64,000 nucleotides of DNA from an uncultured Bacillota bacterium (GTDB lineage: Bacteria > Bacillota > Dehalobacteriia > UBA7702). Positions 33,987 through 52,197 of the stretch are shown piece after piece. Position 1 is the stretch's first letter. Each line of letters opens with the position of its first letter. The translations under genes were made by a program, and so were the position numbers. The notes beneath the pieces were generated by a model. That model saw only the letters and a program-made list of their open reading frames with translations. It searched no databases and was not told where the DNA came from. The stretch is taken from positions 892 to 64,891 of the forward strand of contig CADBQN010000006.1 in assembly GCA_902796855.1 (NCBI GenBank), written 5' to 3'.

Positions 33987-34042
33987 ACTTTAAAGAACTG
34001 CCCCTTTGAAACTAACTCTTTATTCCGGGACGCGTCCCCTTT

Positions 34043-34265
34043 GGCGTGCCGTCGGAACCGCCTTTGGTGGTTTCATTGGTTTTTGGTGTGCTATCGGAAC
34101 CGTCCTCATCGGTTTCATCGGTTTTCGGCGTGCCAGCGGAACCGTCTTTGGTGGTTTCATTGGTTTTTGGCGTGCCATCGGAACCGTCTCCATTGGTTTC
34201 ATCGGTTTTTGGCGTGCCATCGGGATCGTCCCTGTTGGTTTGCTGTTGGTTTTCCCCGTTGGTTT
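34043..34265. repeat. Tandem array of five 42-bp repeats (GGCGTGCCATCGGAACCGTCTTTGGTGGTTTCATTGGTTTTT consensus), preceded by a GGGACGCGTCCC palindrome
   Basis: Units at 34043, 34085, 34127, 34169, 34211, last one 44 bp and degenerating; open in 4 of 6 frames; minus frame would read a KPMKP-rich 14-aa repeat from a TTG start. Confidence 0.8.
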
Positions 34266-34319: not shown

Positions 34320-35477
34320 CTATATACTTTTCTTCCATTCTTTGTATAATTCGGCACATTTGGCAACACAAAAAGCTGAAAACAATAAACCACCGCCATT
34401 TCGTTTGTTATCTTTTTCAATCTGAACTTTGTACTGAGCTTTGATATCATTATCAGAGAAATCATCAAAATGTATTTTGAGATATTTGTCAAAATCATCC
34501 TTTTCCTGTGCGTCTTTAAAAATGAGAAGCTGATTGAAATTATTCTCACGACTGGAAATATCAAGTGACCCATGAGTAAAAAGCCGCAATAGTTTCCCCT
34601 CTATGGAATCCAACAAATAGCATGAATACCAAAAATCGTCTCTACCGGCTACAGCACAGGTTTTCGCTTTGGGAAGGTATTTTCGAAACCCATCAAAACA
34701 CCAAAGTTCCGTTTCATAAATAATTGTGTTATGAAACATGATGTTTAGTGGAGCAAGATGCATCTCCGGATCTGTATAAAATGCTGCGGGTGCCAACCAA
34801 TCAGGTTTCATTTTCCCGAATTGTTTTATTTGATACTCCGGAAAATCGGTATGGTAAGAGTAATTCTTATTACCCCAATCCATTTCCCAATTATCAATAT
34901 CATCCAATAATATCATTAACCGTTCTTTAGGAGGTCGATCAATACCGAAACGCTTTCGCCATAAATACTCTACATCATTCATATCAGCGTTTCCATCGAT
35001 TGCAGTGTTATTATCAACCACTCTCGTATAGATTCGATACGGAAGAACTGTTTTTCCAATCTTTTTACCGTCCGAAGATGTAATATTCCCATCTTGATAC
35101 GATTTTTCCAAATAATACGGAACATCAGATGTATTTTTTACAATAAGCACATCGATTTCATGATTTTCTATGGTAATTGTCCTCATTTCAATACGGGGTC
35201 TAACGCTTCCGGCATAGTGAATATTCCTTAAAATATTTACAACACGCTGTTGATCTCGCCTATTTGCATCGTTTTCCACGCCGAGGATTTCAAAGGTCTG
35301 ATCTCCAATACCAAAAATAATATATGCATCACGATCTGCCCGCGAATTTGCCATACAGGTTATATCATGAACAAGATCACCTTTATCATGATGATGCTCT
35401 CTTTTGAAATCCCACCAATCATCTTCACGTTGAGACTGTATCAGTTCTTCAATTACGGATGTTAAATCTTTTTCCAC
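34320..35477 (-). CDS. Schlafen/AlbA_2 (PF04326) domain protein with uncharacterised C-terminal domain, likely defence-associated
   Basis: N-terminus 'EELIQSQREDDWWDFKREHHHDKGDLVHDITCMANSRADRDAYIIFGIGD' fits AlbA_2 core; AT-rich codon usage; last gene of island operon. Confidence 0.55.
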   Translation of the reverse strand: MEKDLTSVIEELIQSQREDDWWDFKREHHHDKGDLVHDITCMANSRADRDAYIIFGIGDQTFEILGVENDANRRDQQRVVNILRNIHYAGSVRPRIEMRTITIENHEIDVLIVKNTSDVPYYLEKSYQDGNITSSDGKKIGKTVLPYRIYTRVVDNNTAIDGNADMNDVEYLWRKRFGIDRPPKERLMILLDDIDNWEMDWGNKNYSYHTDFPEYQIKQFGKMKPDWLAPAAFYTDPEMHLAPLNIMFHNTIIYETELWCFDGFRKYLPKAKTCAVAGRDDFWYSCYLLDSIEGKLLRLFTHGSLDISSRENNFNQLLIFKDAQEKDDFDKYLKIHFDDFSDNDIKAQYKVQIEKDNKRNGGGLLFSAFCVAKCAELYKEWKKSI

Positions 35478-35536
35478 AAAGATACCTCCTGACTATTATA
35501 AACAGGGATATTTCCAAACAAAGCCGTCCCTTTTAA

Positions 35537-38437
35537 TCAAAAGCTAAGGATATTGTTTAAAATAACAAGGTTAAAAATAAACTGTTTTTCCCCTTCTTTG
35601 AACTTCACATTAATATAACCCTTGTCAGTATCTTTTTTTGTAATCGTACCTTCGCCGAATTTTTTATGAGTTACCTTCATTCCGATTTTCATATCATCAA
35701 AAATTACTTCGGCATGATTTGTTTCGGCTTCGCTTGCTTTTTCAGTCTTTTCAGCAGTACCCTTTTTGCTGACCGTCTTATGTTGGCTTCGTATATCGGA
35801 ATCAGCTTCCACTGTTTTTTCTAAAGGCTTCGTCTCTTCTTCACGAAAAACCGGTTCAGACAGATCCATATCATTTTCCATTGTTGCCTGCTGATTGTAA
35901 AAAAGCTGCTGGTATTCTTCTTTTTTGATAACCGTGTCCCAACCGCCGACATCTTTTCCTTCGTGTTTATCTATACCTGTGTAAGAAAGACTGCTGTCCT
36001 CATACCGCTTAAATTTAAAAATAGCGTCATTCATCAAGCTCGCGTTGAACACTCCCAAAGCGCAGAGCAACTCAAAATCCTTTACGTCAAGACCGGTAAC
36101 TTTTTTGAAAAGTCCGGGTTCAAGCTGGGTAATTACATCTTTCAGGGTGCGCTCACGGTAATCCGTCAGATACATGAAAACCGGAATACGCGTGGCAAAT
36201 TTGATGAGCTTTTCCTGAATCTGCTTCCGCATGGATTTATATTCTTTTTCCTCTGCCGTAAGCTCTTTCTTTTCTTTCTTGGAAAGCTTATCTTCTCCCT
36301 CTTTCTTGGCTTTTTTAACCTTCTCCGATTTATTGATAATGGTCTCAATATCGCTGTTTAAGGAGCGGAACCCCTCAATATGCATCAGGGCGTTCAGCGC
36401 TTCTTCACTTGCCAGCAACCGGGAAAGCGTTTCATTATCTACATTCACCAGCAACGCGGACTCCCAGCGGCGCGCAAGCAAAGTAGCGGAAGTACCGGCA
36501 AGAGCAATATCAAGAACATCCTGCGCGGAAATCTGTTTCATGGTTGAACCGTCATAGGCCAGCACAGGCAGGAAGCTTATAAACTCCGCGACTTTCTTTT
36601 CAGGATTATCTTCATTGACGTTCAGGCGGCAGGAATAATCGGAAATCTGACGAAGCGCACGGTCAAGAGCAAAATCAAAAACATAGCATTCCTGCTTCAT
36701 TATCTGTTCTTTTCCCGCGTCGTCCTTTATTGTCCATGGCGACTGCACACGAAAAGCCGTTTGAAAATACGTTTCGGGGCTTTTCAGATTCCGCAGCATA
36801 AACACGCCTGTCCACGGTTTTATCGTGACGCCCGTTGTGAGTTTGCCGCAGGAAAGGGTAATTGTTTTTGTGGCAAGCGGATTATCCATCGCGTTTTGAA
36901 CAGGGCGCAAAGCATCAAGACCGATACCAGCCTGAGAACCGGCGCAGACAACAACTTTATAATCTCTGAAATAGTTATCCTGCATCAGAAGATTATTCAT
37001 TGCATAGCAGGCCGCGACATTCGGCAGAAACCAAAGCGTATGATTCAGCACCGCCAAAAGCCGGGCATCAGAAAAGGGCATCGGCGGTCGTTTATCCTGT
37101 CCCAGTTTCAAATCATCCACACTGGAAGGAAGATATGACCCGCGGATAAGCTGAAGCCATTTATAGACCTCGTTTTCATAAACGAATTTAGCATTTTCAA
37201 CGGTATCACCTTCCTGCACTTTCGCGGAGAAAAAAACATTCAGGTCAAATTCGTTAAATTCCCCGTTCAGTGCAATCTGGCGAATACTGTCCGGAATTTG
37301 ATAGGTGAGCATCACCATTCGAGGCAGAGCGAGATAGGGATTATCCGAACCTTTCCAGTTCTCTTTTGCTCTTTGCTCGTCTGAATAAGTCCAGTTATAA
37401 ATCTGATCTTCTATAAATTCACCGCTGTTAAGGGCGCGGAACGGAGTTCCGGACAGGAATAAATAATACTGCGTGGTAATGGGCAAAAATGTTTCGTTAT
37501 AGGCGTTATCCGCCTCATCCTTTTTATATTTTTCCTGGTCAAAGTCGGCCTCTGCCTCTTCATCGGGATTTTCAAAAAGCTTTTTTGCGTTTTCTCTCCA
37601 CGCTCCGAAATGGTACTCGTCAAAAACAACCAAATCCCAGTTGGCCGAGTGAATAAACTCATTCTTGGACTTGATGCCGCCGTTTTCATTCGTGCCCAAC
37701 AGGTCTTGAAACGAACCAAAGACAACAATCGGTCTGCTTTTATCCGCGTTGTCAAAGGCCTGATCGATATTGATATTCTGACCGTGCGCGTCTTTGTTTG
37801 ACACAAACTGCCATCCCTCAAAATCGGTATGGCCCGCCAAATCCTCCGCCCACGCGGATTCCACCGCCGGTTTAAAGGTAAGAACAAGAACTCTCTTTAA
37901 CCCCATCTTTTTTGCCAGCTCATAGGTGGCAAAGGTCTTGCCGAAACGCATTTTGCAGTTCCAGAGGAATTTCGGCGCGCGGGTGGGCTCGGCCTCCTCA
38001 GCCTGTTTAAAATAGCTCATCGCACGCTGAACGGCCTCTGCCTGTTCCGGACGCATTTGAAAAGACAGGGTTCTGTTTTCCGTGTTTTCCGTATTGTCCC
38101 GCACCGCAACAATCGCGGCTTTTACCGCGTCTAAATCACATTGGTACCATTCGTTTCGATCCGCTCCGGCGTTCAGCTGACGATACCCGCGCCGACGAAG
38201 GGCCGCATGAATGTCATGGTCAGTAAAACAGCTCCCATCAGGGCGCACAGCGGGTTCGGTCAGCACGATTTTATACGGTACAGCGGAAGTGTGCATCTGT
38301 TCTGCAACACGGGTCTCAGCGTCACGTTCGGTATATCCGATTTTCAGATAGCCCTTGTGGGACGCAACGCCGATAAGCTCATACGCATATATGGTTGGCG
38401 TTACTTCTGGACGAGGGGCGAAAAAATCAATAGCCAT
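35537..38437 (-). CDS. Fusion protein: N-terminal T5orf172 (GIY-YIG-superfamily) domain + SNF2-like SF2 helicase/ATPase + coiled-coil + C-terminal Tudor-like domain; putative restriction/effector subunit
   Basis: 'TIYAYELIGVASHKGYLKIGYTERDAETRVAEQ' = T5orf172; 'KMRFGKTFATYELA' (motif I), 'WDLVVFDEYHFGA' (motif II), 'LFLSGTPFRA' (SNF2 motif III); C-terminus 'MKVTHKKFGEGTITKK...INVKFKEGEKQF' like the UvrD/PcrA C-terminal Tudor. Confidence 0.65.
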   Translation of the reverse strand: MAIDFFAPRPEVTPTIYAYELIGVASHKGYLKIGYTERDAETRVAEQMHTSAVPYKIVLTEPAVRPDGSCFTDHDIHAALRRRGYRQLNAGADRNEWYQCDLDAVKAAIVAVRDNTENTENRTLSFQMRPEQAEAVQRAMSYFKQAEEAEPTRAPKFLWNCKMRFGKTFATYELAKKMGLKRVLVLTFKPAVESAWAEDLAGHTDFEGWQFVSNKDAHGQNINIDQAFDNADKSRPIVVFGSFQDLLGTNENGGIKSKNEFIHSANWDLVVFDEYHFGAWRENAKKLFENPDEEAEADFDQEKYKKDEADNAYNETFLPITTQYYLFLSGTPFRALNSGEFIEDQIYNWTYSDEQRAKENWKGSDNPYLALPRMVMLTYQIPDSIRQIALNGEFNEFDLNVFFSAKVQEGDTVENAKFVYENEVYKWLQLIRGSYLPSSVDDLKLGQDKRPPMPFSDARLLAVLNHTLWFLPNVAACYAMNNLLMQDNYFRDYKVVVCAGSQAGIGLDALRPVQNAMDNPLATKTITLSCGKLTTGVTIKPWTGVFMLRNLKSPETYFQTAFRVQSPWTIKDDAGKEQIMKQECYVFDFALDRALRQISDYSCRLNVNEDNPEKKVAEFISFLPVLAYDGSTMKQISAQDVLDIALAGTSATLLARRWESALLVNVDNETLSRLLASEEALNALMHIEGFRSLNSDIETIINKSEKVKKAKKEGEDKLSKKEKKELTAEEKEYKSMRKQIQEKLIKFATRIPVFMYLTDYRERTLKDVITQLEPGLFKKVTGLDVKDFELLCALGVFNASLMNDAIFKFKRYEDSSLSYTGIDKHEGKDVGGWDTVIKKEEYQQLFYNQQATMENDMDLSEPVFREEETKPLEKTVEADSDIRSQHKTVSKKGTAEKTEKASEAETNHAEVIFDDMKIGMKVTHKKFGEGTITKKDTDKGYINVKFKEGEKQFIFNLVILNNILSF

Positions 38438-38441
38438 ATTA

Positions 38442-40025
38442 TCACTCCAACTCCATCTTTGGTATTGACTCTTCTATAACTTTGACTTCGTGTTCATTCA
38501 ACCCATATTTTTCGTATAGTTTTTCATCCGTCCATCGAATAGAGAAGTCTTGAATTGGGACAAACTCATAAGCTTTTGGAGGCATGTCTTGTGTTGAGGT
38601 TTTTATAGCAACTAAAAACCTCAGAAATTTGGTTGATATATACGCCATTAAATTATCGGCTTCTTCTTTCGATAATCTTCTATCTGGCGGTAAAGCAACA
38701 ACATAAGTATTAGAACTACACGAATTCGGTGCACTAATTTTTGGCTTTCCAACTATGCTTCCACTTGGATTTCCTGAACGAGGAATTATTACTTTATATT
38801 TGTTAACTGCCTCTCTGTTCTTTGGGATGCTTTTTTCAGCGACATAACACATTCCGCCATGAATATACACTTTTACTTGTCTAGCGTTAGTAGGCTTTGA
38901 ACTCATAGCAATAAAGCTTTTCCCGTCCGCTGTCTGAATTAAACCGTCTTCTTTATTCCCGTTCCAGTCAACTTTTGTATGGAACCCGAAATATCTACCA
39001 GCATTTAGCCATTCAGATAATGAGGGTTCGTTAATCTTTTGAACCTTTTTCAAAACTGATATCTGGGCATCATTCCTTATAAAGGTTTCCATATCTTTTT
39101 CAAGCAATGGACGTTCAGTCATGCTGACATAATCTCCATCATGTGAAAAAACCTGACAAAGCCCTCTATTATCCCTATCCCATAGGAAATAACACACTCC
39201 ACCTTTTATCTCCACTCCAGGAAAGCAATCTGAGGCTGTAGGATAGTCGTGGATGACCCTTATTCTATCATCATGAAGCATGTCACTTCTAAATGAATCC
39301 AGCCCTCGTCCACCCATGAACCATCGAGCAGGGATAATCATGCAAAGATACTTTGGGGATAGTTTTTGCGCCTGTTGTACAAACTTTTGATATATCGGCA
39401 AAGCGCTTGCAGCATTACCTCCATCACTAAGATGATATGGAGGATTACTAATAATTACATCAAATTTCATATTAAATGCCTCCTGTGGCTTTAACATATG
39501 AATGAACTCATATGCATGAGTTTCCATAGTTTCGCCTCTATCCTCTTCTCCAAGAACAGTCTTATTGGAAATACCGCAATATATACAACGCCTATCTTTC
39601 CAATTATGTTGGATTTTTTTATACCTTATGTTTCCCTGAGCTGTGTCAAATCTCGTAACAGAGTATTCACTATTGGGGTACTTCGAACAGTAAATGCTTC
39701 TTCTAGATAGCAAGCTAGTCAACTCAGTAATAGCAATGCCATAGATCTGGTTTTGAAAGATATGGTCTATTCTTTCTTGCAAATCAGGGAATTGCCATTC
39801 TAATCCTTTTATCAAGCGTTTTGCTATCTCCCGAAGAAATACGCCACTTTTACAAGCAGGGTCAAGAAACTTCGTATCAGGATTTTCAAACAATTCCTGC
39901 GGGAGCATATCCAACATTGCATTGGCTATATCCGGCGGGGTAAAAACCTCATCATTTGAAAGATTCGCTAAACAAGTCAGAACATCAGGGTTATATATAT
40001 TTCCAAAAAGACCATTATCAGCCAT
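38442..40025 (-). CDS. Gamma-class N6-adenine DNA methyltransferase (Eco57I/TaqI-like) with C-terminal putative TRD
   Basis: Motif X 'DEVFTPPDIANAMLDML', motif I 'FLDPACKSGVFL', motif IV 'DVIISNPPYHLSD'. Confidence 0.8.
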   Translation of the reverse strand: MADNGLFGNIYNPDVLTCLANLSNDEVFTPPDIANAMLDMLPQELFENPDTKFLDPACKSGVFLREIAKRLIKGLEWQFPDLQERIDHIFQNQIYGIAITELTSLLSRRSIYCSKYPNSEYSVTRFDTAQGNIRYKKIQHNWKDRRCIYCGISNKTVLGEEDRGETMETHAYEFIHMLKPQEAFNMKFDVIISNPPYHLSDGGNAASALPIYQKFVQQAQKLSPKYLCMIIPARWFMGGRGLDSFRSDMLHDDRIRVIHDYPTASDCFPGVEIKGGVCYFLWDRDNRGLCQVFSHDGDYVSMTERPLLEKDMETFIRNDAQISVLKKVQKINEPSLSEWLNAGRYFGFHTKVDWNGNKEDGLIQTADGKSFIAMSSKPTNARQVKVYIHGGMCYVAEKSIPKNREAVNKYKVIIPRSGNPSGSIVGKPKISAPNSCSSNTYVVALPPDRRLSKEEADNLMAYISTKFLRFLVAIKTSTQDMPPKAYEFVPIQDFSIRWTDEKLYEKYGLNEHEVKVIEESIPKMELE

Positions 40026-40731
40026 TTTCTGTAATCCTCCTATAATGGATTAACGGATATTCGTTTACAGGTTTCGGAATAAGTTTCTTTGTAATGGGAT
40101 CAAATGTCCAATTATTATAATTCAGCGCAACATCGTCAAATAAATTTTGTTCTTCTGCGTAGTTACTCTTATTCGAATTTTCTTTCAAAAGAACATCCAA
40201 GCGGAAATCACGCCGTTTTATTCTCGCGTCGTTAAAAGGAAACGTCCATTCAGCGAAAATAATGGGGGTTTCTGTGTCCTGCTGGTTCTCATCAACACAC
40301 ATCAGGCTCAGGGCGTTTCCGCAAACGATATTCTTTTGCAGGATATACCGCGCGGCGGTTCTGGCCTCATCGTTGGCTTCCTTTTTGCAAACCGCCGTAT
40401 ATTCCGCGTCCCACAGGGCAAACAGATTTTCGCGGCATATTTCAGCGTTATCCGCTAAAATATCTACACCGTAAAGGCTCGTCAGCGCAAGAATGGCGTT
40501 TCGCTCATAATCATAGGCGCTTTTTTTGTATTTTGATTTTACCACCGCCAATTTACGGGAAAGAATCTCCGCAAGGAAAACGCCCTCGCCTACGGCAGGC
40601 TCTAAAAATCTTGAATCAATCCGCAGACATTCATCCGCTACCAAATCACACATGGCCTTTACTTCACGCTCAGCGGTAAATACTTCCCCGTGGTCAGATA
40701 TACGCTGTTTTGTTTTTACTTGCTTTGCCAA
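40018..40731 (-). CDS. N6-adenine MTase-like protein with motifs X and I but degenerate motif IV (NPPY -> GNAL); likely catalytically inactive paralog or partner
   Basis: 'HGEVFTAEREVKAMCDLV' (X), 'FLEPAVGEGVFL' (I), 'IVCGNALSL' in place of NPPY; 8-nt overlap with downstream MTase. Confidence 0.55.
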   Translation of the reverse strand: MAKQVKTKQRISDHGEVFTAEREVKAMCDLVADECLRIDSRFLEPAVGEGVFLAEILSRKLAVVKSKYKKSAYDYERNAILALTSLYGVDILADNAEICRENLFALWDAEYTAVCKKEANDEARTAARYILQKNIVCGNALSLMCVDENQQDTETPIIFAEWTFPFNDARIKRRDFRLDVLLKENSNKSNYAEEQNLFDDVALNYNNWTFDPITKKLIPKPVNEYPLIHYRRITENG

Positions 40732-42288: not shown

Positions 42289-45200
42289 TCACTTGATGAG
42301 GTTTTCCAGCGTCTCAAAGAGGAGCTCCGGTTCCACGGGCTTGCTCAGGTGCGCGTCGAGGCCCGCCTGCATGCTCCGCTGAACGTCCTCGTCAAAGGCG
42401 TTGGCGGTCAGGGCGATGATCGGGACGGTCTTCGCGTCGGCGCGGTCCATTTCCCGGATCGTCCGCGTCGCCTCGAGGCCGTCCATTTCCGGCATTCGCA
42501 TATCCATGAGGATGGCGTCGTAGTAGCCTTCCTCGTGTCCGCCGAACATCTCCACGGCGACTCTGCCGTTTTCGGCGTGCTCCACTTCCATCTCCCGCAT
42601 GGAAAGGACCATCATCATGATCTCGGCGTTGACCATGACGTCTTCCGCCAGCAGGACGCGGCGGCCCTTGAGATCGACGGTCTCCTCCACCAGCTTCGCG
42701 TTTTTCTTTTTAAAGGCCTCGCGGAACTCATCCATCACCGTCCCGGCGAAGAGGGGTTTTGCAACAAAAGTATCCACGCCGGCCTTACGGGCCTCTTCTT
42801 CAACCTCATCCCAGTTGTAGGAAGTCAGAATGATAATTGGCGTATGATTCCCAACGATAGCACGGATCTGCCTTGTCGTCTCCACACCATCCATTTCCGG
42901 CATCTTCCAGTCCACGAGAATCAAGTTGTAATCCTTCCGGCGGGTATGACGCATTTTGACCATTTCAATGGCGTCCTTGCCGGACAACACCATCTCACAA
43001 CTGATCCCAACCTGCTCAAGAATGATCTGGGCGTGTTCGCAGGCGATGCGGTCGTCGTCGACGACCAGCACGCTCATTTCGTGGGGGCGAATCTCAATGT
43101 CATCGTTGTCAGAAGCAATGTGACTCGACTGCCCCAGTGTAATGGTGACGGTAAACGTGGTTCCAACACCTTTTTCACTTTCCGCTTCAATATGGCCGTT
43201 CATCAGTTCTACAATATTTTTTGTGATGGGCATGCCCAGACCGGTGCTGCCATATTTATTGGTCGTAGACGAAGCCTCCTGTGAAAACACTTCGAACAGC
43301 TTAGGCAGATATTCCTTGCTCATGCCGATACCGGTATCGCTGATAGTACAGCGCAGCGTAGCATTGCCGTCCATCCTTGCCACATCTTTAATGATAAAGG
43401 TCACGGTACCATCTTCGGGTGTAAACTTGACAGCATTGCCCAGAATATTGATCATCACCTGGCGCAGTTTCATGTCGTCGCCGATATAATATTCGTCAAT
43501 CTGTCCCTCTGTCCGGCACTCGTAATGAATCCCTTTATCCCGGCACTGTCCGCTGATGATGGTGTTGACCTGTTCCAGCGTCTTGGAGAAGGAAAATTCC
43601 TCGTTCTTGATGGTCATCCGCCCGGACTCGATGCGGCTCATATCGAGGATGTCGTTGATGATGCCAAGCAGATGATGGGCCGAGGTGCCGATCTTTTCCA
43701 GATATTCCCGGGTCTGGGCGGAAATTTCCGGGTCGCTCAGCGCGATATTGTCCAGACCGATGATGGCGTTCATCGGCGTGCGGATCTCGTGGCTCATGTT
43801 GGAGAGAAAAGCGGTTTTCGCTTTGTTAGCCGCTTCCGCCTCTGCCAGTGCGTCCTGCAGTACCTGACTCTGCGTCATGGACTTGCGCGTTTCCAAATCC
43901 ACGTCTACGAAGCAGGCGCCAACGATATGCACCAGATGATCTATGCGGTCTTCCGGACGGCGCACCCCGGCGAAACGCACTTCCTCCCATGAATCCCGTC
44001 CATGCCGATGCACCATGTACCGATAGGCGATAACCCGTTGCTCCAGCAACAGGGCTTTTACGTTTTCCGGCTGAATGAAGCGCAGGAATTCCTCACGGTA
44101 TTCTTCCTTAATATTCGTGTTCGCATAGGCGGTCACGGCGGTAATATACCGGAAATGATCCCCAACACGGAAGCCGTTCTCAACGTCGCTGTGCGCCTGA
44201 TAGCACACTCCCTCGTCGTGATCCAGATCCAGATAATAGACGCTCCAATAGTCGGAAGCCAGCGCCGTAATCATGCGGGTCTGTTCTTCCTGCTGTTGCT
44301 TCTGCGCGAGCAGTTCTTCTTGTAACTGAATACGCTGTTCCATTTCTTCCCGCTTGATGCGGTTCTCGGCCTCGGCAGTTTCCCTTTCCAGTATAAGCTT
44401 CGAGTTTCTGCGGCTTTGCCGAACGATAAAAGTAAACAGCCCTAACATAACAGCGATGGTCAGCACCGACTGAATAACGCTCCTCCGAACGATACCAGCG
44501 GAAATGGTGCTGATGTTCTCACTGATCACGCTTTCCCGGATCAGATAGGTCAGACGCCAGTCCGTGCCTTTCACAGGAACATAGCTCAGCGTTTCCCGAA
44601 TACCATTGTAGGTGAAGCAGACCTCGCCGTTTTTTCCCGCGGTAAAATCCGACACAAATCCTTCATAGGAATAGCCCGGCTCAAATTCGGCGCTGCGCAT
44701 GGCTTCGAGCAGATTATCTTCCACGGCAAGACCGCCCAAGACCGTGTTGCTCAGGGCGATGCCGTTGCTGGTATAGATATTGCAGAAGGTCGCACCGTCT
44801 TCTTGGGCGTCCATGGAAACACCGGCAAGCATTTCATCCATGTCGATCTGCATGAAGCAGGCAACCAGTTCCGTATCGGCAAACTGAATGTGAGTGGGAA
44901 CGGCAATGATGACTTTTTTATCGGCACTCTCTAAATTCTCTACCAAAATTTCCGGTCCCTGCAGCATATGATAATCAAATTGGTACTGATTGATCTCTTC
45001 CTGCGGCCCGGTGGAGGTGTAAATCAAATCGTCGGCACCGACAAAAGCAAACCGCTCCAGATTAAAAAGTCGCTTGATCCGTACTTGATACGCCTGGAGA
45101 TGTGCGTTATCGCTCAGATCTTCTTCCGTCATCAGGTCCAAAGCCGTTTCGATGACATTGACTTTTTCCCGCATATTCCCCGCTACGACCTGCTCACGGC

Positions 45201-45366
45201 GACCCGCGAGCTCATCCAGATAGAGCAGGCTGACCGAACGAACGGCGGATTCAGTATCGCTTTTCGCACTGCGCCCCGTCCATATTGTACCAAGAAATAT
45301 GATAAGTAAAAGAATAAGACCCCCTATAATCGAGACAAGCGTTATCCTTTTTTTTCGATTTTCCAT
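42289..45366 (-). CDS. Hybrid sensor histidine kinase/response regulator (extracytoplasmic Cache-like sensor, HisKA, HATPase_c, two REC domains)
   Basis: '[18 protein letters not shown]' H-box; N/G1/G2 boxes; REC1 '[12 protein letters not shown]...[13 protein letters not shown]'; REC2 '[10 protein letters not shown]...[12 protein letters not shown]'; start ATG 45366. Confidence 0.85.
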
Positions 45367-45662
45367 TCGACAACACCCCTTTGACCCGATTCGCCGCGCG
45401 GACTCTTCTGCACCGCGGTTCGTTTCTGAAAATGAATTATGTTTTTTTATTCTTTGTTTTCGGTGTCCGCGCCATTCGCGCGAAACGTTCAAAGAACGGT
45501 ATCTGACCGTACACACATATTATACACAAAGGCGCAGGAAAATCCAATAGAAATTTGGAAAAAAAGGACAAAAGCCCATAAAAAAGCTCCCCCTTTCGGG
45601 GAAGCCTTTCCGCGGCTCCGCCGCTGACCGGGAAACCGAGGACCGGCGGACGGCGCCGCCGA

Positions 45663-46544
45663 TCAAAAGGCCCGGGTGATCATCTCACGATAGCGCCGCA
45701 GCTCCGTTTCGTCGCTTTCCTCCGTGAGCTTTTTAATAGAGGCAAGCAGTTCCTCTTTGGCCTCGGGAATCCTGCACTTCACATGGAACAGGTTGGAAGC
45801 GTGTTCGTTCATGAAGATCGTGTCGTTGGTCAGACAGCGCACAAACTCATGGAGCTCCTCCAGCTTTTCCTTTTCGGTCGATTCCGTATACAGCCCTTTT
45901 TCCACCGCCCGATACAGCGGCGTCCCGGGTACGACCGTCAGCATGGAAGTATTGATCATCGTGGGATGCAGGCCTTCGTAGAGCGTTGCCGTAAGGCGGG
46001 CGTTGGCGGGGCCGCCGCCATGGCCGCCGGCGCCGTTCAGGAAATTGACGATAAACGGAAGCCCGGAGGCCTCGATCTTTTCCAGGACTTCTCTGGCTTG
46101 GGAAGCGGTATAGCCCTTGTTGATCCGCTTTAACACCGTATCGTCTCCGGACTCTACGCCGATATAGGGATCGGCGTAGCCCACCGCCGCCAAGTTCCGA
46201 AGCTGATCTTCCGTTTTATCATAAAAGTTATCAATACGGGCGTAACCGCCGATGCTCTCCACGGAGGGGACATATTTGCGCAGCAGCTCCGCCGTTTTCA
46301 TCAACACATCGTAATCCGCCGCGAAACCGTCCGCGCCCTGCAGAAAAATCCTCTTCGGCGCGCCGAAATATTCGGGAATTTCCCTGATGTCCGCCTCGAT
46401 TTCCGCCAGCGTTGATTTTTTAAACTTCTGATTTTTAAAGTAGGTGCAGAACAGGCAATGGTTATGGGAACATCCCTCTGTCGTCTGTAAATACCCGTCC
46501 GCCGTCTCATAGTGCGGCCGGTTGATCCCTCCCGCGAAACGCAT
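45663..46544 (-). CDS. Radical SAM protein with non-canonical Cx4Cx2C cluster (paralog A, 293 aa)
   Basis: 'TTEGCSHNHCLFCTYF'; 'GVESGDD' glycine-rich SAM motif; no SPASM or B12 domain. Confidence 0.7.
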   Translation of the reverse strand: MRFAGGINRPHYETADGYLQTTEGCSHNHCLFCTYFKNQKFKKSTLAEIEADIREIPEYFGAPKRIFLQGADGFAADYDVLMKTAELLRKYVPSVESIGGYARIDNFYDKTEDQLRNLAAVGYADPYIGVESGDDTVLKRINKGYTASQAREVLEKIEASGLPFIVNFLNGAGGHGGGPANARLTATLYEGLHPTMINTSMLTVVPGTPLYRAVEKGLYTESTEKEKLEELHEFVRCLTNDTIFMNEHASNLFHVKCRIPEAKEELLASIKKLTEESDETELRRYREMITRAF

Positions 46545-46562
46545 CGTGCCATTCCTCCTTTT

Positions 46563-47444
46563 TTACAGCGTCCGCTTGCTTTCGCGGACGGCGGCCATTT
46601 TCGCCATATCGCCGTGTTTGATCTCGTCTTCCAGCACGGCGACGATCTTTTCCTTCCGCCGCAGAAAGTCCGGGCCGGTCAGGTTCGCTCCGGAAACGGT
46701 GTGATGGGTGATAAAGGAGCAGTCGCAGGTCAGGTGCTCCACAAAGGTCTTCAGCTCGATCAGCATCTCCCGCTCGGAAAGGGGCGTAAACGCGCCGCGG
46801 CGCGCGTCCTCCAAAAGAGGCGTACCGGGGAAGAGCACCAGGCCGCCGGTGCCCACCAGCATCGGCCGGCATCGGCTGAAGATCTCCGCCGAGTGGACGG
46901 CGTGCTCCCGGCTGTGTTCCTTCCCGGCGACGCCGTTGAGGAAAGTCATCCAAAAGTCGATGCCCGCTTCGGTCAGCTTGGCGCACTGCTCGATGATGTC
47001 CGCGGCGCGGTAGCCTTTGCCGATCCGCTCCAGCGTCCAATCGTCGCCGCTCTCCACGCCGAGGGAGATTTCCCGCAGCCCCATTTCTTTCAGGTTTTTC
47101 AGCTCCGCGACGGTCTTATTGCGGATATCAGTCACCCGGGTCGCCGCGTAGATGTATTCCATCCGCGGCAGATATCGGTTGATCATTTCCAAAATCGGCG
47201 CCAGTCTGTTATAGCTCAGGCAGAGCGGGTTCGCGGAGAGGAGCTGGATGGTCTTTGCCTCCGGCACGGTCTCGGCCAGCTCCTTTAAGTCCTCCTCGAT
47301 CCACTCTTTGGGCTGGGGACGAAAAGGCACGTCCTTATACATCGTGCAGAAGCGGCACTTGTTGTGCGTGCAGCCCTGGGTGATCTGCAAAAGCGGAAAG
47401 GTGGGCCAGTAGGGGTTTCGGTATACGGTATCGGTAAAATGCAT
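46563..47444 (-). CDS. Radical SAM protein with Cx4Cx2C cluster (paralog B, 293 aa)
   Basis: 'ITQGCTHNKCRFCTMY'; 'LGVESGDD'; start ATG 47444 with AAGGAG RBS (track GTG start 47480 rejected). Confidence 0.7.
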   Translation of the reverse strand: MHFTDTVYRNPYWPTFPLLQITQGCTHNKCRFCTMYKDVPFRPQPKEWIEEDLKELAETVPEAKTIQLLSANPLCLSYNRLAPILEMINRYLPRMEYIYAATRVTDIRNKTVAELKNLKEMGLREISLGVESGDDWTLERIGKGYRAADIIEQCAKLTEAGIDFWMTFLNGVAGKEHSREHAVHSAEIFSRCRPMLVGTGGLVLFPGTPLLEDARRGAFTPLSEREMLIELKTFVEHLTCDCSFITHHTVSGANLTGPDFLRRKEKIVAVLEDEIKHGDMAKMAAVRESKRTL

Positions 47445-47476
47445 GGTAACACTCCTTTGCTCAGGTTCCTCGCCGC

Positions 47477-48001
47477 TCACAGCTCGAAGACAAATTCCTC
47501 GATGGGTTTTCGCTTATAGTGCCAGCCGTTGGCCCTGGCCCGGTCGTTCGGATAGCCGAGGCCCAGCATCATGACGGGGATCATATAGTCCGGCAGGCCG
47601 AAAACGTCCGATACGGTCTTGGAATCGAAACCGCGGATCCAGATCGTGTGCACGCCGAGTTCCTCCGCCTCGTACATCATCGTCGTCGCGGCGATGGAGG
47701 CGTCCTGCTCGCCGGAATTGTAGTTTTGGTAATAACGGTCGCCGGGGTTCGTCCACACCTCCCTCAGATCGTAGCAAACGAGGATGATCAGCGGCGCGTT
47801 ATAGTGAAAGCGGGTGACGGTCTTCAGTTTGGCCATGGCCTCCTCCCCGCGGATCAGAAAGAATTTCTGCGGCTGATAGTTGCAGGCGGTGGGGACGACG
47901 CGCCCCGCCTCCAGAATGCGGTCCAGTTTTTCCGGTTCCACCGGGCGTCTGTCAAAGAAACGCTCGGAATAGCGGTTCTTCGCGAGTTCCAAAAAATCCA
48001 T
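47477..48001 (-). CDS. Nitroreductase-family FMN oxidoreductase
   Basis: 174 aa; 'RYSERFFDRRPV', 'PTACNYQPQKFFLI', 'GVHTIWIRGFD' nitroreductase blocks. Confidence 0.8.
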   Translation of the reverse strand: MDFLELAKNRYSERFFDRRPVEPEKLDRILEAGRVVPTACNYQPQKFFLIRGEEAMAKLKTVTRFHYNAPLIILVCYDLREVWTNPGDRYYQNYNSGEQDASIAATTMMYEAEELGVHTIWIRGFDSKTVSDVFGLPDYMIPVMMLGLGYPNDRARANGWHYKRKPIEEFVFEL

Positions 48002-48050
48002 TTCGTTTTCTCCTTTCGTCCTGAATTGATTCCATTATACCTTCCCCCCT

Positions 48051-48078
48051 TGCAAAAGCAAAGATACAGAAGTATAAT
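48051..48078 (+). promoter_or_regulatory. Sigma-A promoter (TTGCAA-16-TATAAT) for divergent TetR gene
   Basis: cttgcaaaagcaaagatacagaagtataat. Confidence 0.5.
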
Positions 48079-48130
48079 AATGGAAGAAATTTTTACAGAT
48101 TCACTGTTGTGTAAGAATCGGGAGGATGAA

Positions 48131-48655
48131 ATGGCGGAACGCACAAAAATCTGGATCGCGGAGACAATGAAGAAACTGCTGACCAAGAAACCGCTGGATA
48201 AAATATACGTCACGGAAATCTGCCGCGCGGCGGAGATCGAGCGGCCCACTTTTTACTATCATTTTAAGGACAAATATGACCTGATGGCTTGGATGTTCGC
48301 TCAGCACGCGCTGAAAACGGACGTCCTCTCCGTCGCCTCGGCGGCGGAGGGTCTGAAACAGATGCGGAGCGACTTTTTTTTCTATAAACGCGCCTATGAG
48401 GACACTTCGCAGAACCCCATGTGGGCCTATATGCTGGAATACTTCGCGCGGCGCTATACCGAGCTGGCCATGGCAAAGCTGGGAACGGACGCTCTGGACA
48501 CCCAGATCCGGTACAGCATCCGCCTCTATTGCTACGGCACCCTGGGGATGACGAGGGAATGGCTGCTGACGGACAACATCACGCCGGCGGAAACGGCGGT
48601 GACGATGATGTTCCGCTCCATGCCGGAGTCGCTGCGGGAGATCTATTTCTCCTGA
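48131..48655 (+). CDS. TetR/AcrR-family transcriptional regulator
   Basis: HTH 'IYVTEICRAAEIERPTFYYHFKDKYDL'; start ATG 48131 with GGGAGGA RBS (track ORF 47519 is antisense run-through of nitroreductase). Confidence 0.8.
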   Translation: MAERTKIWIAETMKKLLTKKPLDKIYVTEICRAAEIERPTFYYHFKDKYDLMAWMFAQHALKTDVLSVASAAEGLKQMRSDFFFYKRAYEDTSQNPMWAYMLEYFARRYTELAMAKLGTDALDTQIRYSIRLYCYGTLGMTREWLLTDNITPAETAVTMMFRSMPESLREIYFS

Positions 48656-48743
48656 AAAACAGCGCTCCCGGCCGAAGAGGGGCCGGGAGCGATGAGGCGA
48701 GCTTTGGTTCTTCCGCCTTTTGGCGGCGCGCGGAGTTCTTTCG

Positions 48744-49076
48744 CTAAATTCTGTTCCGCTCTCCCCAGACGCAGAGCTGATCCATGACCTTCATCAGGGA
48801 TTTTCCCCGTTCGCTCAGGCGATATTCCACCTTGGGCGGGATCTGCGGATATTCCTTCCGCGCGATCAGGCCGTCGCGTTCCAGCTCTTTCAGGTTGGCG
48901 CTGAGGGTCTTGTCGGAAATGTTTTTGATGTACCGTTTCAGCTCGTTGAAGCGGACGGGCTCAAACTCCATCAGACAGTAGAGGATCACCATTTTGTGCT
49001 TGCCGGAGATCAGCGACAGCGTGTAGCTGAAGCCGGTCTCCTCAAAATTCGCTTTTTCGATGTAATTTTTGATCAT
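48744..49076 (-). CDS. HxlR-family (MarR-like wHTH) transcriptional regulator
   Basis: 'SLISGKHKMVILYCL...RFNELKRYI..ISDKTLSANLKELERDGLIAR' HxlR signature. Confidence 0.85.
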   Translation of the reverse strand: MIKNYIEKANFEETGFSYTLSLISGKHKMVILYCLMEFEPVRFNELKRYIKNISDKTLSANLKELERDGLIARKEYPQIPPKVEYRLSERGKSLMKVMDQLCVWGERNRI

Positions 49077-49195
49077 AATACGCTTTCCTCAATGACAGTA
49101 CCTTTCTTTTATATCAGTACTTGTATTTTTTCCGTTATCGGTTATCATTATAGACAGGACAGAGCGTTCTGTCAAATCCATCACGAAAAGCAGCT

Positions 49196-49768
49196 ATGGT
49201 CATGAGAGAAAAAATAAAAATCACCGAGGGGATCTTCCCGATGCCCGTGCTGATGGTCGCCACGTACAACGAAGACGGCAGCGTCAACGTGATGAACGCC
49301 GCCTGGGGAACGATGCAGCAGAGGGACACGGTGGCGCTGAATCTGACGGAATCGCACAAAACGGTAAAGAACATCAAGGCCCGGGGGGCGTTCACCGTCA
49401 GCGTCACCGACGCCGCCCACATCACGGAAGCGGATTATTTCGGGGTGGAATCGGGCAACCGCGTCCCGGACAAATTCGCCCGCAGCGGTCTCACCGCGGC
49501 CAAAGCCGAAACGGTGGACGCGCCGGTCATCAACGAATTTCCGCTCTGCCTGGAATGTGAATTCGTGGAATACCAGCACAACGAATACGGCTGCGGCGTC
49601 ATCGGCAAAGTCGTCGCCGTCACGGCGGACGAAAGCGTGATGAGCGACGGGAAAATCGACATGTCCCGGGTCAACGCCATTGCCTTCGACCCCTATACCC
49701 ACGGCTATTACAAAGTGAGCGAGCGCGTGGGCGAAGCCTTTCGGGACGGTCTGAAATTGAAGAAGTAA
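49196..49768 (+). CDS. Flavin reductase-like (FMN-binding split-barrel) protein
   Basis: 'PMPVLMVATYNEDGSVNVMNAAWGTM' FMN-binding core; divergent from HxlR (classic pairing). Confidence 0.8.
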   Translation: MVMREKIKITEGIFPMPVLMVATYNEDGSVNVMNAAWGTMQQRDTVALNLTESHKTVKNIKARGAFTVSVTDAAHITEADYFGVESGNRVPDKFARSGLTAAKAETVDAPVINEFPLCLECEFVEYQHNEYGCGVIGKVVAVTADESVMSDGKIDMSRVNAIAFDPYTHGYYKVSERVGEAFRDGLKLKK

Positions 49769-49854: not shown

Positions 49855-52197
49855 TCATTTGATGAGGTTCTCCAGTGTCGCGAAGAGGGTTTCGGGCTCC
49901 ACGGGCTTGCTCAGGTGGGTGTTCAGCCCCGCCTGCATGCTGCGCTGAACGTCCTCGTCGAAGGCGTTGGCCGTCAGCGCGATGATCGGGATCGTCTTCG
50001 CGTCTTCCCGCTCCATGCCGCGAATGGTCTTCGTGGCCTCCAGCCCGTCCATCACGGGCATACGCATATCCATCAGGATCGCCGCGTAGTAGCCGGGCTC
50101 GTGTCCCGCGAAGAGATCGACGGCGATCTGACCGTTTTCCGCCAGATCGGCCTCCATTTCCCGCATGGAGAGGACCATGACCATGATCTCGGCGTTCACC
50201 GCGATATCCTCGGCGAGGAGGACGCGGCGGCCTTTCAGGTCGGCGGTCTTTCGGATCAGCGTTTCGTTCTTTTTCCGGAAGGCCTCCCGGAATTCCTCCA
50301 TCACGTTTTCGGCGAACAGGGGCTTGGGCACAAAGGTGTCCACCCCGGCCTCCCGGGCCTCGTCGGCGATGTCGTCCCAGTTAAAGGACGTGAGGATGAT
50401 GATGGGGGTATCCGGCCCGACGACGGCGCGGATTCGACGTGTAGTCTCCAGGCCGTCCATTTCCGGCATTTTCCAGTCGATCAGGATGAGATTGTAATCC
50501 TCCCGGCGGCCGTGCCGGATCCGGACTTTGTCGATGCCTTCCCAACCGGATTCCGCCGTCTCGCAGCTGACGCCGACCTGTTTGAGCACGATCTCCGCGT
50601 GCTCCAGGGCGATGCGGTCGTCGTCGATGACCAGCACGCTCATGTTGCGGGGCGCCGGGTTCCCGTCTTCCGCCGGGGAGCCTCGGCGGTCGCTCTCGCC
50701 GAGGGTCACCGTGACCGTGAAGACCGTGCCCTTCCCCTTTTCGCTTTCCACCTCGATGGTGCCGTTCATCAGCTCCACGATGCTCTTGGTGATGGGCATG
50801 CCCAGACCGGTGCTGCCGTATTTGCTGGTGGAGGTGGAATCCTCCTGGCTGAAAGCGTCAAAGATGTGAGGGAGGTACGCTTCGCTCATGCCGATGCCGG
50901 TGTCGCGGATGACGAATTTCAGCACCGCCTGACCGTCGAACCGCGCGCCTTCCTCAATCAGGAAACTGACTTTGCCGCCCTCGGGGGTAAATTTCACGGC
51001 GTTGCCCAGAAGATTGATCAGGATCTGTTTCAGTTTCATGGCGTCGCCGACGTAATACGTGTCGATCTGCCCCACGGCGCGGCAGTCGTAGGCGAGGCCC
51101 TTTTCGCCGCATTGGCCGCTGATCATGGTGTTGACCTGTTCCAGCGCCTTGGCGAAAGAAAATTCCTCGCGCTTCACCGTCATGCGGCCCGACTCGATGC
51201 GGCTCATATCGAGAATGTCATTGATGATCCCAAGCAGGTGCTGGGCGGAATCGCCGATCTTCTCAAGGTATTCCTTCACTTCGCCGCTGGCGGTGGGATC
51301 GTTCGCCGCGATGTTGTTCAGGCCGATGATGGCGTTCATCGGCGTGCGGATCTCGTGGCTCATGTTGGACAGGAACGCCGTTTTCGCCTTATTGGCGTTT
51401 TCCGCCGCCGAAAGGGCGTCGCGCAGCGCCTCGCGGCTTTCGGAAAGCTCCTCCTTCTGCGCCTGTTCGCGCCGGAGGGATTTTTCCAGTTCCGCGCGGT
51501 ATTCTTCCTTTTCGTCCTCAACGACAAAGCTGTGCAGCAGGCAGGTGCCGACCATGTAGCCCATCGCGTAAAAGGGCCACAGCGGGTAAAAGATCTGCAG
51601 CATGACGAGAGTGATCATCGCCACGCCGAAGAGGCCGATGGTCAGGTTCCGGCGGCGGAATTTTCCCTCGGTCCTCAGCGTCAGGCGCAGGGTGTAGACC
51701 GACGTCAGCAGAAACATCAGGATCTGCACGCCGAGGGAGACGTAGCGCAGCCACGCCGCGTGGTAGCCGCCGCCGGCGTCGAACCAGAACATGACGGGGA
51801 AGAAGATATTGATGACGGCGACGATGATCTGAAAAGCGAAGAACGTCCAGCCGATATGGCGGAGCAGGCGGCCAAAGAAGGTATCGCTCTCCAAATAGGC
51901 GACCACATACTTCGTCCAGAACAGTACGGCCGCGGCCATCGCCGTAAAGTACAGCGTCGTGTCGGCGAACTGAAGCGCCGTGAGGTGATGGGCGTCTAAA
52001 ATCCCCCACAGCGCGTCGGTGATATAATAGCTCAGGACGCACAGCAGAAAGCCGCGGTAGATCCGCTGGGTGCGCGTGATTTCGGCGCCGTCCCGCGTCC
52101 ACAGGATGTCCCTGTTCGTGATCATCAGAATGATGAACGCCAATATGCCGATGATTGAATAGGTCATGCCGTCACTCTCCCAATTCCCTATCGTCAT
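49855..52197 (-). CDS. Hybrid sensor histidine kinase/response regulator paralog (7-8 TM membrane-embedded sensor, HisKA, HATPase_c, two REC)
   Basis: C-terminal ~650 aa ~75% identical to 42289..45366 kinase (e.g. '[22 protein letters not shown]', '[20 protein letters not shown]'); distinct N-terminal polytopic sensor; start 52197 or 52167. Confidence 0.85.
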   Translation of the reverse strand: MTIGNWESDGMTYSIIGILAFIILMITNRDILWTRDGAEITRTQRIYRGFLLCVLSYYITDALWGILDAHHLTALQFADTTLYFTAMAAAVLFWTKYVVAYLESDTFFGRLLRHIGWTFFAFQIIVAVINIFFPVMFWFDAGGGYHAAWLRYVSLGVQILMFLLTSVYTLRLTLRTEGKFRRRNLTIGLFGVAMITLVMLQIFYPLWPFYAMGYMVGTCLLHSFVVEDEKEEYRAELEKSLRREQAQKEELSESREALRDALSAAENANKAKTAFLSNMSHEIRTPMNAIIGLNNIAANDPTASGEVKEYLEKIGDSAQHLLGIINDILDMSRIESGRMTVKREEFSFAKALEQVNTMISGQCGEKGLAYDCRAVGQIDTYYVGDAMKLKQILINLLGNAVKFTPEGGKVSFLIEEGARFDGQAVLKFVIRDTGIGMSEAYLPHIFDAFSQEDSTSTSKYGSTGLGMPITKSIVELMNGTIEVESEKGKGTVFTVTVTLGESDRRGSPAEDGNPAPRNMSVLVIDDDRIALEHAEIVLKQVGVSCETAESGWEGIDKVRIRHGRREDYNLILIDWKMPEMDGLETTRRIRAVVGPDTPIIILTSFNWDDIADEAREAGVDTFVPKPLFAENVMEEFREAFRKKNETLIRKTADLKGRRVLLAEDIAVNAEIMVMVLSMREMEADLAENGQIAVDLFAGHEPGYYAAILMDMRMPVMDGLEATKTIRGMEREDAKTIPIIALTANAFDEDVQRSMQAGLNTHLSKPVEPETLFATLENLIK

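Follow-up and report, generated by a model that had tools for sequence, protein, structure and literature searches.

The window studied here, a 64,000-nucleotide stretch of contig CADBQN010000006.1 from an uncultured Bacillota bacterium, carries at positions 45663-48655 a four-gene unit that encodes two paralogous radical S-adenosylmethionine (SAM) proteins, rSAM-A and rSAM-B, a nitroreductase-family protein and a divergent TetR-family regulator. This unit, referred to below as the cassette, had been picked out in an earlier note on the same DNA, and all four genes are present as described there, including two radical SAM proteins of 293 residues each. Its genes and control elements are as follows.

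45663-46544, minus strand: rSAM-B, a stand-alone radical SAM protein of 293 residues with the motif GCSHNHCLFC; PF04055 at 59 bits, orthologs 80-86% identical
46563-47444, minus strand: rSAM-A, a stand-alone radical SAM protein of 293 residues with the motif GCTHNKCRFC; PF04055 at 63 bits; the core gene of the cassette
47477-48001, minus strand: nitroreductase-family flavin mononucleotide (FMN) protein of 174 residues, first gene of the operon; PF00881 at 90 bits
48131-48655, plus strand: TetR-family regulator of 174 residues with TetR_N and TetR_C_8 domains, divergent from the operon
48034-48061, minus strand: probable operon promoter, found by eye, with a perfect -10 TATAAT (complement of 48034-48039), a weak -35 TTGCTT (complement of 48056-48061) and a spacer of 16
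48050-48078, plus strand: promoter of the TetR gene (tetR), TTGCAA-17-TATAAT, 10 of 12 consensus matches, back to back with the operon promoter
48093-48114, no strand assigned: candidate TetR operator, the inverted repeat TTACA-N12-TGTAA, lying past the tetR -10 and ahead of the tetR ribosome-binding site
45587-45603, minus strand: terminator-like hairpin and T-run that ends the operon after rSAM-B; stem TTCCCCGAAAGGGGGAG, then CTTTTTTATG

According to the open reading frame (ORF) listing and a reading of the strand, the minus-strand genes run in the order nitroreductase, rSAM-A, rSAM-B, separated by gaps of 32 nt and then 18 nt with a ribosome-binding site in each. The start of rSAM-A is the ATG at 47444, 32 nt past the nitroreductase stop; all orthologs have 293 residues and begin MHFT, and the GTG at 47480, which would overlap the nitroreductase gene, is not used. 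The radical SAM genes had been said to overlap or follow the nitroreductase gene, and with this start they follow it. Comparison with orthologs of 173-179 residues that begin MAERTK or MAEITK places the tetR start at the ATG at 48131. rSAM-A and rSAM-B share 35% identity over 248 residues by BLASTP (E=1e-52) and 33% in a global alignment, less than the roughly 40% given earlier, and by this comparison they are clear paralogs.

Both proteins match the radical SAM domain PF04055 of Pfam well above its cut-off of 29.5 bits (59.2 bits for rSAM-B and 63.2 bits for rSAM-A), and their cluster motifs, CSHNHCLFC in rSAM-B and CTHNKCRFC in rSAM-A, agree with the Cx4Cx2C pattern G-C-[ST]-H-N-[HK]-C-[LR]-F-C that the earlier note had reported. 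Across 60 diverse family members Cys 25, Cys 30 and Cys 33 are invariant, with Phe 32 preceding the last Cys, and four residues separate the first two Cys, in place of the three of Cx3Cx2C, in 99 of the 108 full-length family representatives. The AlphaFold2 model of rSAM-A (pLDDT 91.6, pTM 0.89) shows alternating strands and helices. When it was compared with the PDB by Foldseek, 196 matches were obtained at E≤1e-3, and the top 50 listed are all radical SAM enzymes. The best of them are generic radical SAM cores, those of AprD4, MtaB, MgmA, Elp3, BioB and MiaB, with TM-scores of at most 0.65 and, for all but BioB, E values of 1e-9 to 1e-7. The partial (β/α)6 TIM barrel by which the radical SAM superfamily is recognized is thus predicted for rSAM-A.

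The spacing of the Cys residues had been presented as unusual, which overstates the case. It is documented in OxsB (PMC9204698) and in GenD1 and GenK (PMC4340712), it characterizes one megacluster among the many spacing variants at RadicalSAM.org (PMC9477430), and the CPHGKCIFC of archaeal Elp3 aligns opposite the CTHNKCRFC of rSAM-A. Judged from the aligned sequences, the distinctive point is GC[ST]HNxCxFC as the signature of a whole family and not the spacing by itself.

A scan of both radical SAM proteins against Pfam and NCBIfam gave no B12-binding, SPASM, TRAM, UPF0004, GNAT or other accessory domain, and the Cys motif, which begins at residue 25, leaves no space for an N-terminal domain. 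Further conserved Cys residues number four in rSAM-A (154, 192, 240 and 242) and two in rSAM-B, and different ones occur in rSAM-C, a third paralog encoded in related loci; the alignment contains no auxiliary Cys triad or second cluster conserved family-wide across paralogs A, B and C. All three are acidic, with isoelectric points of 6.5 (A), 5.6 (B) and 4.9 (C). Unannotated tandem radical SAM enzymes are often maturases of peptides that are made by the ribosome and modified after translation (RiPPs), and there are weak matches here to the C-methyltransferase model TIGR03975 (E 4e-5 to 2e-4). Modification of a small ribosomal peptide encoded nearby is nevertheless close to excluded: neither a SPASM/twitch nor an RRE domain was found with Pfam, the intergenic gaps of 18 and 32 nt hold no conserved small ORF and no precursor peptide, and the cassette has no conserved gene for a transporter or a protease. 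The only small ORFs that came into question, two downstream of rSAM-A in Butyrivibrio, were traced to fragments of a decayed FMN_red gene. The domain scans and the inspection of gaps and small ORFs therefore bear out the earlier impression that no SPASM domain, B12 domain or precursor peptide is visible.

No NCBIfam model reaches its cut-off for the radical SAM proteins of the window or for the 60 diverse family members, and in Pfam only PF04055 does so. The earlier note had allowed that a well-characterized family might claim these proteins; none does, since no curated-family cut-off is reached. The HpnJ and PhpK models match 52 of the 60 members (best E 2e-19) over the radical SAM core only, and weaker, partial similarity extends to the HemW/HemN, MnmL/YtqA and Elp3 models of NCBIfam. 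A family profile searched against 1.84 billion representative sequences, with clusters counted at E≤1e-30, returned 644 clusters, nearly all of single-domain proteins of about 290 residues. Longer representatives (315-386 residues) were considered as possible domain fusions; they show PF04055 alone, and their N-terminal extensions look like mis-called starts. Close homologs of each paralog number over 1,000 and all bear the bare annotation 'radical SAM protein', and orthologs 78-86% identical occur in many genera. Against the sequences of the PDB, the family profile ranked archaeal Elp3 first (7e-16), followed by MgmA (4e-11) and OxsB (7e-10). We conclude that rSAM-A and rSAM-B are stand-alone radical SAM cores of an unnamed family near Elp3/YhcC and the class B part of the superfamily.

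Each of these neighbours differs from the family in clear ways. The match to archaeal Elp3 covers residues 111-229, and archaeal Elp3 shares the loop C-x-H-x-x-C-x-F-C with rSAM-A, but Elp3 has a C-terminal GNAT/KAT domain that the proteins of the window lack, and they score 15.8-16.6 bits with TIGR01211 against a cut-off of 350. Weak alignments link the rSAM-A C-terminal half to MnmL/YtqA and rSAM-B to Radical_SAM_C; membership in the MnmL/YtqA-YhcC group fails on the scores for TIGR01212 (21.9-29.6 bits, cut-off 180) and for PF16199 (16.4 bits, cut-off 31.9, rSAM-B only). Elp3 and MnmL are moreover housekeeping tRNA modifiers, whereas the present proteins are acidic and stand in a stress-operon context. 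By sequence the closest radical SAM core is that of the class B enzymes OxsB, GenD1/GenK, MgmA, HpnJ and PhpK, of which MgmA (9ccb) and OxsB come next after Elp3 among the PDB matches; those enzymes are 440-740 residues long with an N-terminal B12-binding domain, which the proteins of about 290 residues described here do not have; the HpnJ, PhpK and MgmA models align through their radical SAM cores alone, and the scores lie far below the cut-offs. MiaB, MtaB and RimO, Foldseek neighbours of rSAM-A with TM-scores of about 0.6, have in common with it the motifs G[IV]ESG and PGTP, which we take to be motifs of that branch of the superfamily. They possess a UPF0004 domain (with a second cluster) and a TRAM domain, both absent here, and the MiaB models give 18-26 bits against cut-offs of 250-606.

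Since the nearest characterized relatives by profile and fold include the RNA modifiers Elp3, MiaB/MtaB and MnmL/YtqA, the enzymes might act in the manner of Cfr, modifying rRNA, tRNA or another universal macromolecule against an antibiotic sensed by TetR. The minimal form found in Butyrivibrio, TetR and rSAM-A adjoining IS21 and SMR genes, does resemble a resistance cassette with TetR and a single gene, and a universal target would let the gene work in bacteria and archaea alike. We consider this very improbable all the same. The proteins consist of the core of about 290 residues only and lack nucleic-acid-binding domains, TRAM, GNAT/KAT and PUA included; the three paralogs are all acidic; the RNA-modifying families score far below their cut-offs (Elp3 16 bits against 350, MnmL 30 against 180); and the steady association with small-molecule reductases, described below, would be left unexplained.

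The control region fits dedicated regulation. The operon promoter, whose -35 is weak, was not reported by the promoter scan, and its TATAAT region is kept in related loci. For tetR, the earlier description of a clean TTGCAA-16-TATAAT promoter holds for the hexamers and not for the spacer, which is 17. A match of this type is by itself no rarer than chance (2 found, 1.9 expected), and the promoter draws its support from its position and from its conservation in related loci; a block that includes the tetR -10 and reads ATTATACTTCTGTA on the opposite strand turns up in the intergenic regions of many related loci. The inverted repeat TTACA-N12-TGTAA, for which 0.01 matches are expected by chance, has its single match in the window at the position given above; of 42 distinct intergenic regions from TetR operons in other organisms, 25 contain it. 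As a sequence element, the palindrome fits the site of a dedicated, autoregulated TetR repressor. No riboswitch or leader RNA was matched by Rfam in the window or in four related loci.

The nitroreductase matches PF00881 with 90.4 bits (cut-off 23.5). No NCBIfam equivalog cut-off is reached by this protein, the RutE, NfsA, NfsB and BluB models all scoring below theirs, and its best PDB relatives, 3h4o and 3ge5, are uncharacterized small nitroreductases of anaerobes. The regulator scores 29.6 bits with TetR_N (cut-off 24) and 26.1 bits with TetR_C_8, exactly at the cut-off, and its closest structures are the DhaS-type regulators 4mk6 and 2iu5.

In order to place the cassette among its relatives, 15 loci obtained by exact-protein look-ups and 80 species-representative loci from GTDB genomes were assembled (handles beginning with L below), their ORFs were called and clustered, and recurrent clusters were annotated. 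The general architecture is a TetR gene pointing away from a co-directional series of nitroreductase, NMO/FabK-like, FMN_red/Flavodoxin_2, rSAM-A, rSAM-B, rSAM-C and DUF3795 genes, in which every member other than rSAM-A can be missing. The three paralog types, A, B and C, have 33-35% mutual identity, and a cassette holds one to three of them. Neighbours were counted in those GTDB loci, 54 in number, whose sequence extends 1.5 kb or more upstream of rSAM-A. A TetR gene lies near rSAM-A in 41, an HxlR gene in 7 and one or the other in 46; the nitroreductase of 174 residues is found in 24, FMN_red in 13, NMO in 13 and any of these three in 31, with DUF3795 in 8 and an α/β hydrolase in 5. The four genes had been regarded as a conserved unit. 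For TetR (41/54) and for the nitroreductase (24/54) the linkage is indeed kept in relatives, and the loss of synteny that would have told against the earlier proposal is not seen; the nitroreductase is optional, however, and not an invariable part.

The remaining variation is modular. In Bacteroidales HxlR replaces TetR beside rSAM-A (L084, L085, L089, L091 and L094). Two parallel modules combine an Rrf2 (HypR-like) regulator with an NAD-binding protein and rSAM-C, and an ArsR-type helix-turn-helix (HTH) protein with rSAM-B and an Old Yellow Enzyme (OYE). In more distant members too, the radical SAM gene keeps its link to a nitroreductase and an HTH regulator: a member with 56% identity is so placed on a plasmid of Clostridium estertheticum, close to transposase genes of the IS66 family, and one with 33% identity in Ilyobacter polytropus. 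In a five-gene cassette (L008; also L009-L011, L056 and L106) rSAM-C is followed, with a 4-nt overlap, by the gene of a conserved protein of 277 residues (7784-8617 in L008) that gives a weak match to calcineurin-like phosphoesterases (Metallophos_2). As a separate observation, rSAM-A of the cultured isolate [Clostridium] aminophilum KH1P1 (L032 6983-7882) is split into ORFs of 170 and 128 residues, which looks like a frameshift or pseudogene, and a second partial copy (11683-12069) lies 4 kb downstream beside an MBL-rubredoxin gene.

A different company is kept by rSAM-A in Oribacterium (L068 3509-9569) and Blautia (L070), where co-directional genes encode TetR, ferritin-like, PNPOx-like, Bcp peroxiredoxin, rSAM-A, EFR1 ferrodoxin, FMN_red and MBL-rubredoxin proteins. 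This string looks like an oxidative-stress operon containing a radical SAM gene, and EFR1 ferrodoxin, encoded directly downstream of rSAM-A, could be its electron donor. Such neighbourhoods suggest the chief alternative to detoxification, namely that the enzymes may belong to an anaerobe's defence against oxidative or nitrosative stress, as part of its toolkit for O2, reactive oxygen species and nitric oxide; the flavoproteins would scavenge O2 and peroxide or supply electrons, and, when conditions become reducing again, the radical SAM enzymes would repair or regenerate a cofactor, protein radical or metabolite that had been damaged. The setting of rSAM-A amid ferritin-like, PNPOx-like, Bcp peroxiredoxin, EFR1 ferrodoxin, Isf-like FMN reductase and MBL-rubredoxin genes in Oribacterium, Blautia and Ruminococcus speaks for such a role, as do the HxlR (RrpA-like) and Rrf2 (HypR-like) regulators, which belong to redox-sensing families; O2 hits every rumen anaerobe, which would explain the spread of the gene to six phyla and to methanogens. 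An oxidative-stress or repair role suits some neighbourhoods equally as well as detoxification does. Taken over all loci we nevertheless judge it unlikely, since radical SAM clusters are themselves O2-labile, the partners met most often are not peroxidases but nitroreductase, NMO and FMN_red, controlled by a ligand-type TetR, and the genes nearby encode no candidate for a repair target. Glycyl-radical activases are moreover families of different proteins, and no NCBIfam activase model is matched.

Orthologs of rSAM-A that are 68-83% identical to the protein of the window occur in GTDB loci from six phyla and two domains of life. The carriers are Firmicutes (Lachnospiraceae, Ruminococcus, Oscillospiraceae and Erysipelotrichaceae), Spirochaetales, Elusimicrobia, Coriobacteriia, Bacteroidales/Prevotellaceae and Methanobrevibacter (five genome assemblies), and nearly all of the orthologs come from gut compartments of goat, sheep, deer and buffalo. 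Across 43 taxa the pairwise identity of rSAM-A is 63-96% (median 73%); that between Methanobrevibacter olleyae and a Lachnospiraceae member is 81%. Four of the five Methanobrevibacter assemblies form a subcluster at 80-95%, the fifth (L093) being about 72% identical to everything, and a Bacteroidales subcluster lies at 77-96%. The GC content of the gene tracks the host, with Elusimicrobia at 0.31 and Coriobacteriia at 0.64 as the extremes. The 18-kb contig of M. olleyae is not considered a binning artefact because it also bears DUF1890 and F420-dependent oxidoreductase genes; the neighbours of rSAM-A on it are SDR, NADP/F420 oxidoreductase, α/β hydrolase and DUF3795 genes and two multidrug-type ABC exporters. 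No relative of the cassette radical SAM proteins was found on viral contigs, and among plasmids there is one closer match, that in C. estertheticum, the others being distant and mostly on megabase replicons. Together these sequence comparisons indicate repeated transfer, then vertical descent under unusually strong purifying selection.

Such constraint on the sequence suggests a universal substrate, and nearly all partners are flavin- or NAD(P)H-dependent. Both observations would suit enzymes that modify an endogenous redox cofactor (flavin, quinone or deazaflavin-like), with the neighbouring flavoproteins using it or reducing an intermediate, and with the tandem paralogs acting successively as CofG and CofH do. 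Tandem paralogous radical SAM enzymes are typical of cofactor pathways, as in CofG/CofH and MqnE/MqnC, and a related family member stands inside a maturation cluster for a selenium-molybdenum cofactor. We hold tailoring of a cofactor to be quite improbable for the cassette itself, however. A paralog number that varies from 1 to 3 and interchangeable flavoproteins are unlike a fixed biosynthetic pathway, the distribution is patchy and mobile (the IS21 neighbour in Butyrivibrio, the IS66 family transposase gene on the C. estertheticum plasmid), repressors of the TetR or HxlR type more typically govern inducible defence, and no other biosynthetic genes are present.

The related member just mentioned is a 35%-identical Cx4Cx2C protein encoded on plasmid EAL2_808p of Peptoclostridium acidaminophilum (L100 4001-4834), between yqeB and an xdhC-family gene; the locus also adjoins yqeC and mocA, and the surrounding genes serve maturation of the cofactor of selenium-dependent molybdenum hydroxylases. 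It hints at another subfamily with a role in cofactor maturation.

The reading that we favour, tentatively and from gene neighbourhood, is that the cassette provides ligand-induced reductive and radical detoxification of a redox-active electrophile. The partners found across relatives (nitroreductase, FMN_red/Isf-like, NMO/FabK-like, OYE and NmrA-like proteins) have different folds, and the partner reductases all use NAD(P)H to reduce quinones, nitro groups or activated C=C bonds. The neighbouring genes are typical of responses to xenobiotics, electrophiles or redox stress. Because the partners act on such groups and the regulators are of xenobiotic- and redox-sensing types, detoxification is preferred, and a small-molecule substrate is preferred over a nucleic acid because the radical SAM proteins are acidic and have no RNA- or peptide-binding domains. 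A pathway of small-molecule modification or detoxification induced by a ligand of TetR had been proposed in the earlier note. Its regulated, peptide-free, small-molecule character stands, while the function, the ligand and the chemistry are read from gene context.

In the proposed mechanism, TetR would bind TTACA-N12-TGTAA beside the back-to-back promoters until a small molecule released it, and the operon would then express the FMN nitroreductase and the two paralogous stand-alone radical SAM enzymes. In each of these the three Cys of GC[ST]HNxCxFC would carry a single [4Fe-4S] cluster, and the enzyme would, as expected of a member of the superfamily, cleave SAM reductively to a 5'-deoxyadenosyl radical that abstracts hydrogen from a small molecule. 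The substrate would belong to the class of redox-active or electrophilic compounds on which the partner reductases act, or be their reduced product, and the transformation would be made irreversible. Paralogs A, B and C may cover different substrates or successive steps. rSAM-A is the core gene, with B and C as add-ons, and the cassette has spread horizontally through ruminant-gut bacteria and methanogens.

Two known systems are instructive here. Firmicutes thiol and electrophile regulons, such as those of YodB, HypR and MhqR in B. subtilis, resemble the cassette in combining a small repressor with genes for NAD(P)H nitroreductases or FMN quinone reductases. In systems of this type an HxlR- or MarR-family regulator is joined to an azoreductase and a nitroreductase, and HxlR and HypR-like regulators adjoin radical SAM genes in loci of the present family. 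The difference is that the radical SAM gene is the invariant core of the cassette and the reductases are optional, whereas no radical SAM enzyme is known to us from those regulons. Anaerobic haem degradation by ChuW/ChuY offers a conceptual precedent, in which a radical SAM enzyme and an NADPH-dependent reductase act on the same small molecule. The HutW/ChuW model gives weak matches (7.7e-5 in the scan of the window proteins; 12 of the 60 family members), the score here being 22 bits against a cut-off of 400; ChuW is a HemN-like class C enzyme of about 420 residues with the canonical motif, and the cassette has no haem-uptake genes.

Several points weigh against detoxification. The functional assignment is inferred entirely from gene neighbourhood, and we know of no radical SAM enzyme that directly inactivates a toxin, so that the activity would be without precedent. 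The reductases are optional, TetR with rSAM-A alone and TetR with A and B but no reductase both being found, and they may be merely co-regulated, or serve as electron donors. The candidate operator lies upstream of the operon promoter and not over it. Some loci (L068, L070 and L013) have Bcp peroxiredoxin, ferritin-like, PNPOx-like and MBL-rubredoxin genes that suggest defence against O2 or peroxide. Distant members, finally, stand in unrelated contexts, among selenium-molybdenum cofactor genes in Peptoclostridium and with a glycosyltransferase neighbour in Fusobacterium, which means that the family as a whole is functionally diverse.

Beyond the cassette, the window contains a neighbouring module and its control elements.

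48744-49076, minus strand: HxlR-family regulator of 110 residues (RrpA-like, 145 bits, below cut-off)
49196-49768, plus strand: flavin reductase-like protein of 190 residues that diverges from hxlR; same arrangement in L006
49175-49147, minus strand: hxlR promoter from the promoter scan, a perfect consensus TTGACA-17-TATAAT
48663-48691, no strand assigned: GC-rich 11-bp hairpin, terminator-like, between the convergent tetR and hxlR

The HxlR and flavin-reductase pair at 48744-49768, adjacent to the TetR cassette, probably works as a second unit of redox or electrophile response that is independent of the first. Two paralogous hybrid sensor histidine kinases, each with HisKA-HATPase and two receiver domains, flank the cassette on the minus strand (42289-45516 and 49855-52197); their C-terminal halves are near-identical, one ending ...LFATLENLIK, and L006, a 99%-identical strain, has the same flanking. 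Farther away, a low-GC island on the minus strand (34320-40731, GC 0.39-0.46 against about 0.60 for the window) encodes a Schlafen/AlbA_2 protein, a T5orf172-domain protein of 966 residues, an Eco57I-type N6 DNA methylase and an MmeI_Mtase-like protein, and by this content it looks like a restriction-modification or defence island. At the corresponding place L006 has other genes. A 42-bp tandem repeat (34040-34241, 4.8 copies, 80% matches) lies at the edge of the island, and the ORF that spans it, with its repetitive translation, is probably spurious.

Databases already list the proteins described here, as anonymous 'radical SAM proteins', and their Cx4Cx2C spacing is known elsewhere. Our literature searches found no study of the family or operon and returned just the known Cx4Cx2C examples; in the searchable literature we found no description of the family as such, of its partnership with reductases and regulators, of one to three tandem paralogs, or of the spread through the ruminant gut, methanogens included. 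One paper on the oxygen response of Spironucleus lists an up-regulated protein under the name 'radical SAM superfamily protein'.

The family is large, with hundreds of clusters at 50% identity, and it combines the diagnostic GC[ST]HNxCxFC with a recurring reductase partner and dedicated regulators. The conservation of rSAM-A across the 43 taxa, methanogens among them, points to strong shared selection in the ruminant gut. The roles known for radical SAM enzymes are, to our knowledge, in biosynthesis, in the maturation of cofactors and in modifying RNA or protein; they are not known as inducible, horizontally mobile genes for stress or detoxification. It is a more doubtful proposal than the detoxification reading itself, but rSAM-A, rSAM-B and rSAM-C might be the first radical SAM enzymes that inactivate an environmental toxin or repair its damage, carried as a mobile resistance cassette among rumen bacteria and methanogens; the candidate toxins would include quinones, nitro compounds and other electrophiles that come from plants or feed. 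With one repressor, one candidate operator and two or three enzymes, the system is small enough to be directly testable. The substrate, once found, would add a reaction type to the superfamily and could account in part for the ability of rumen microbes to withstand dietary toxins or redox stress. If the enzymes do inactivate toxins or repair their damage, radical SAM chemistry would gain a new biological role, which could also be a determinant of the tolerance of rumen communities, including methanogens, to dietary toxins or inhibitors.

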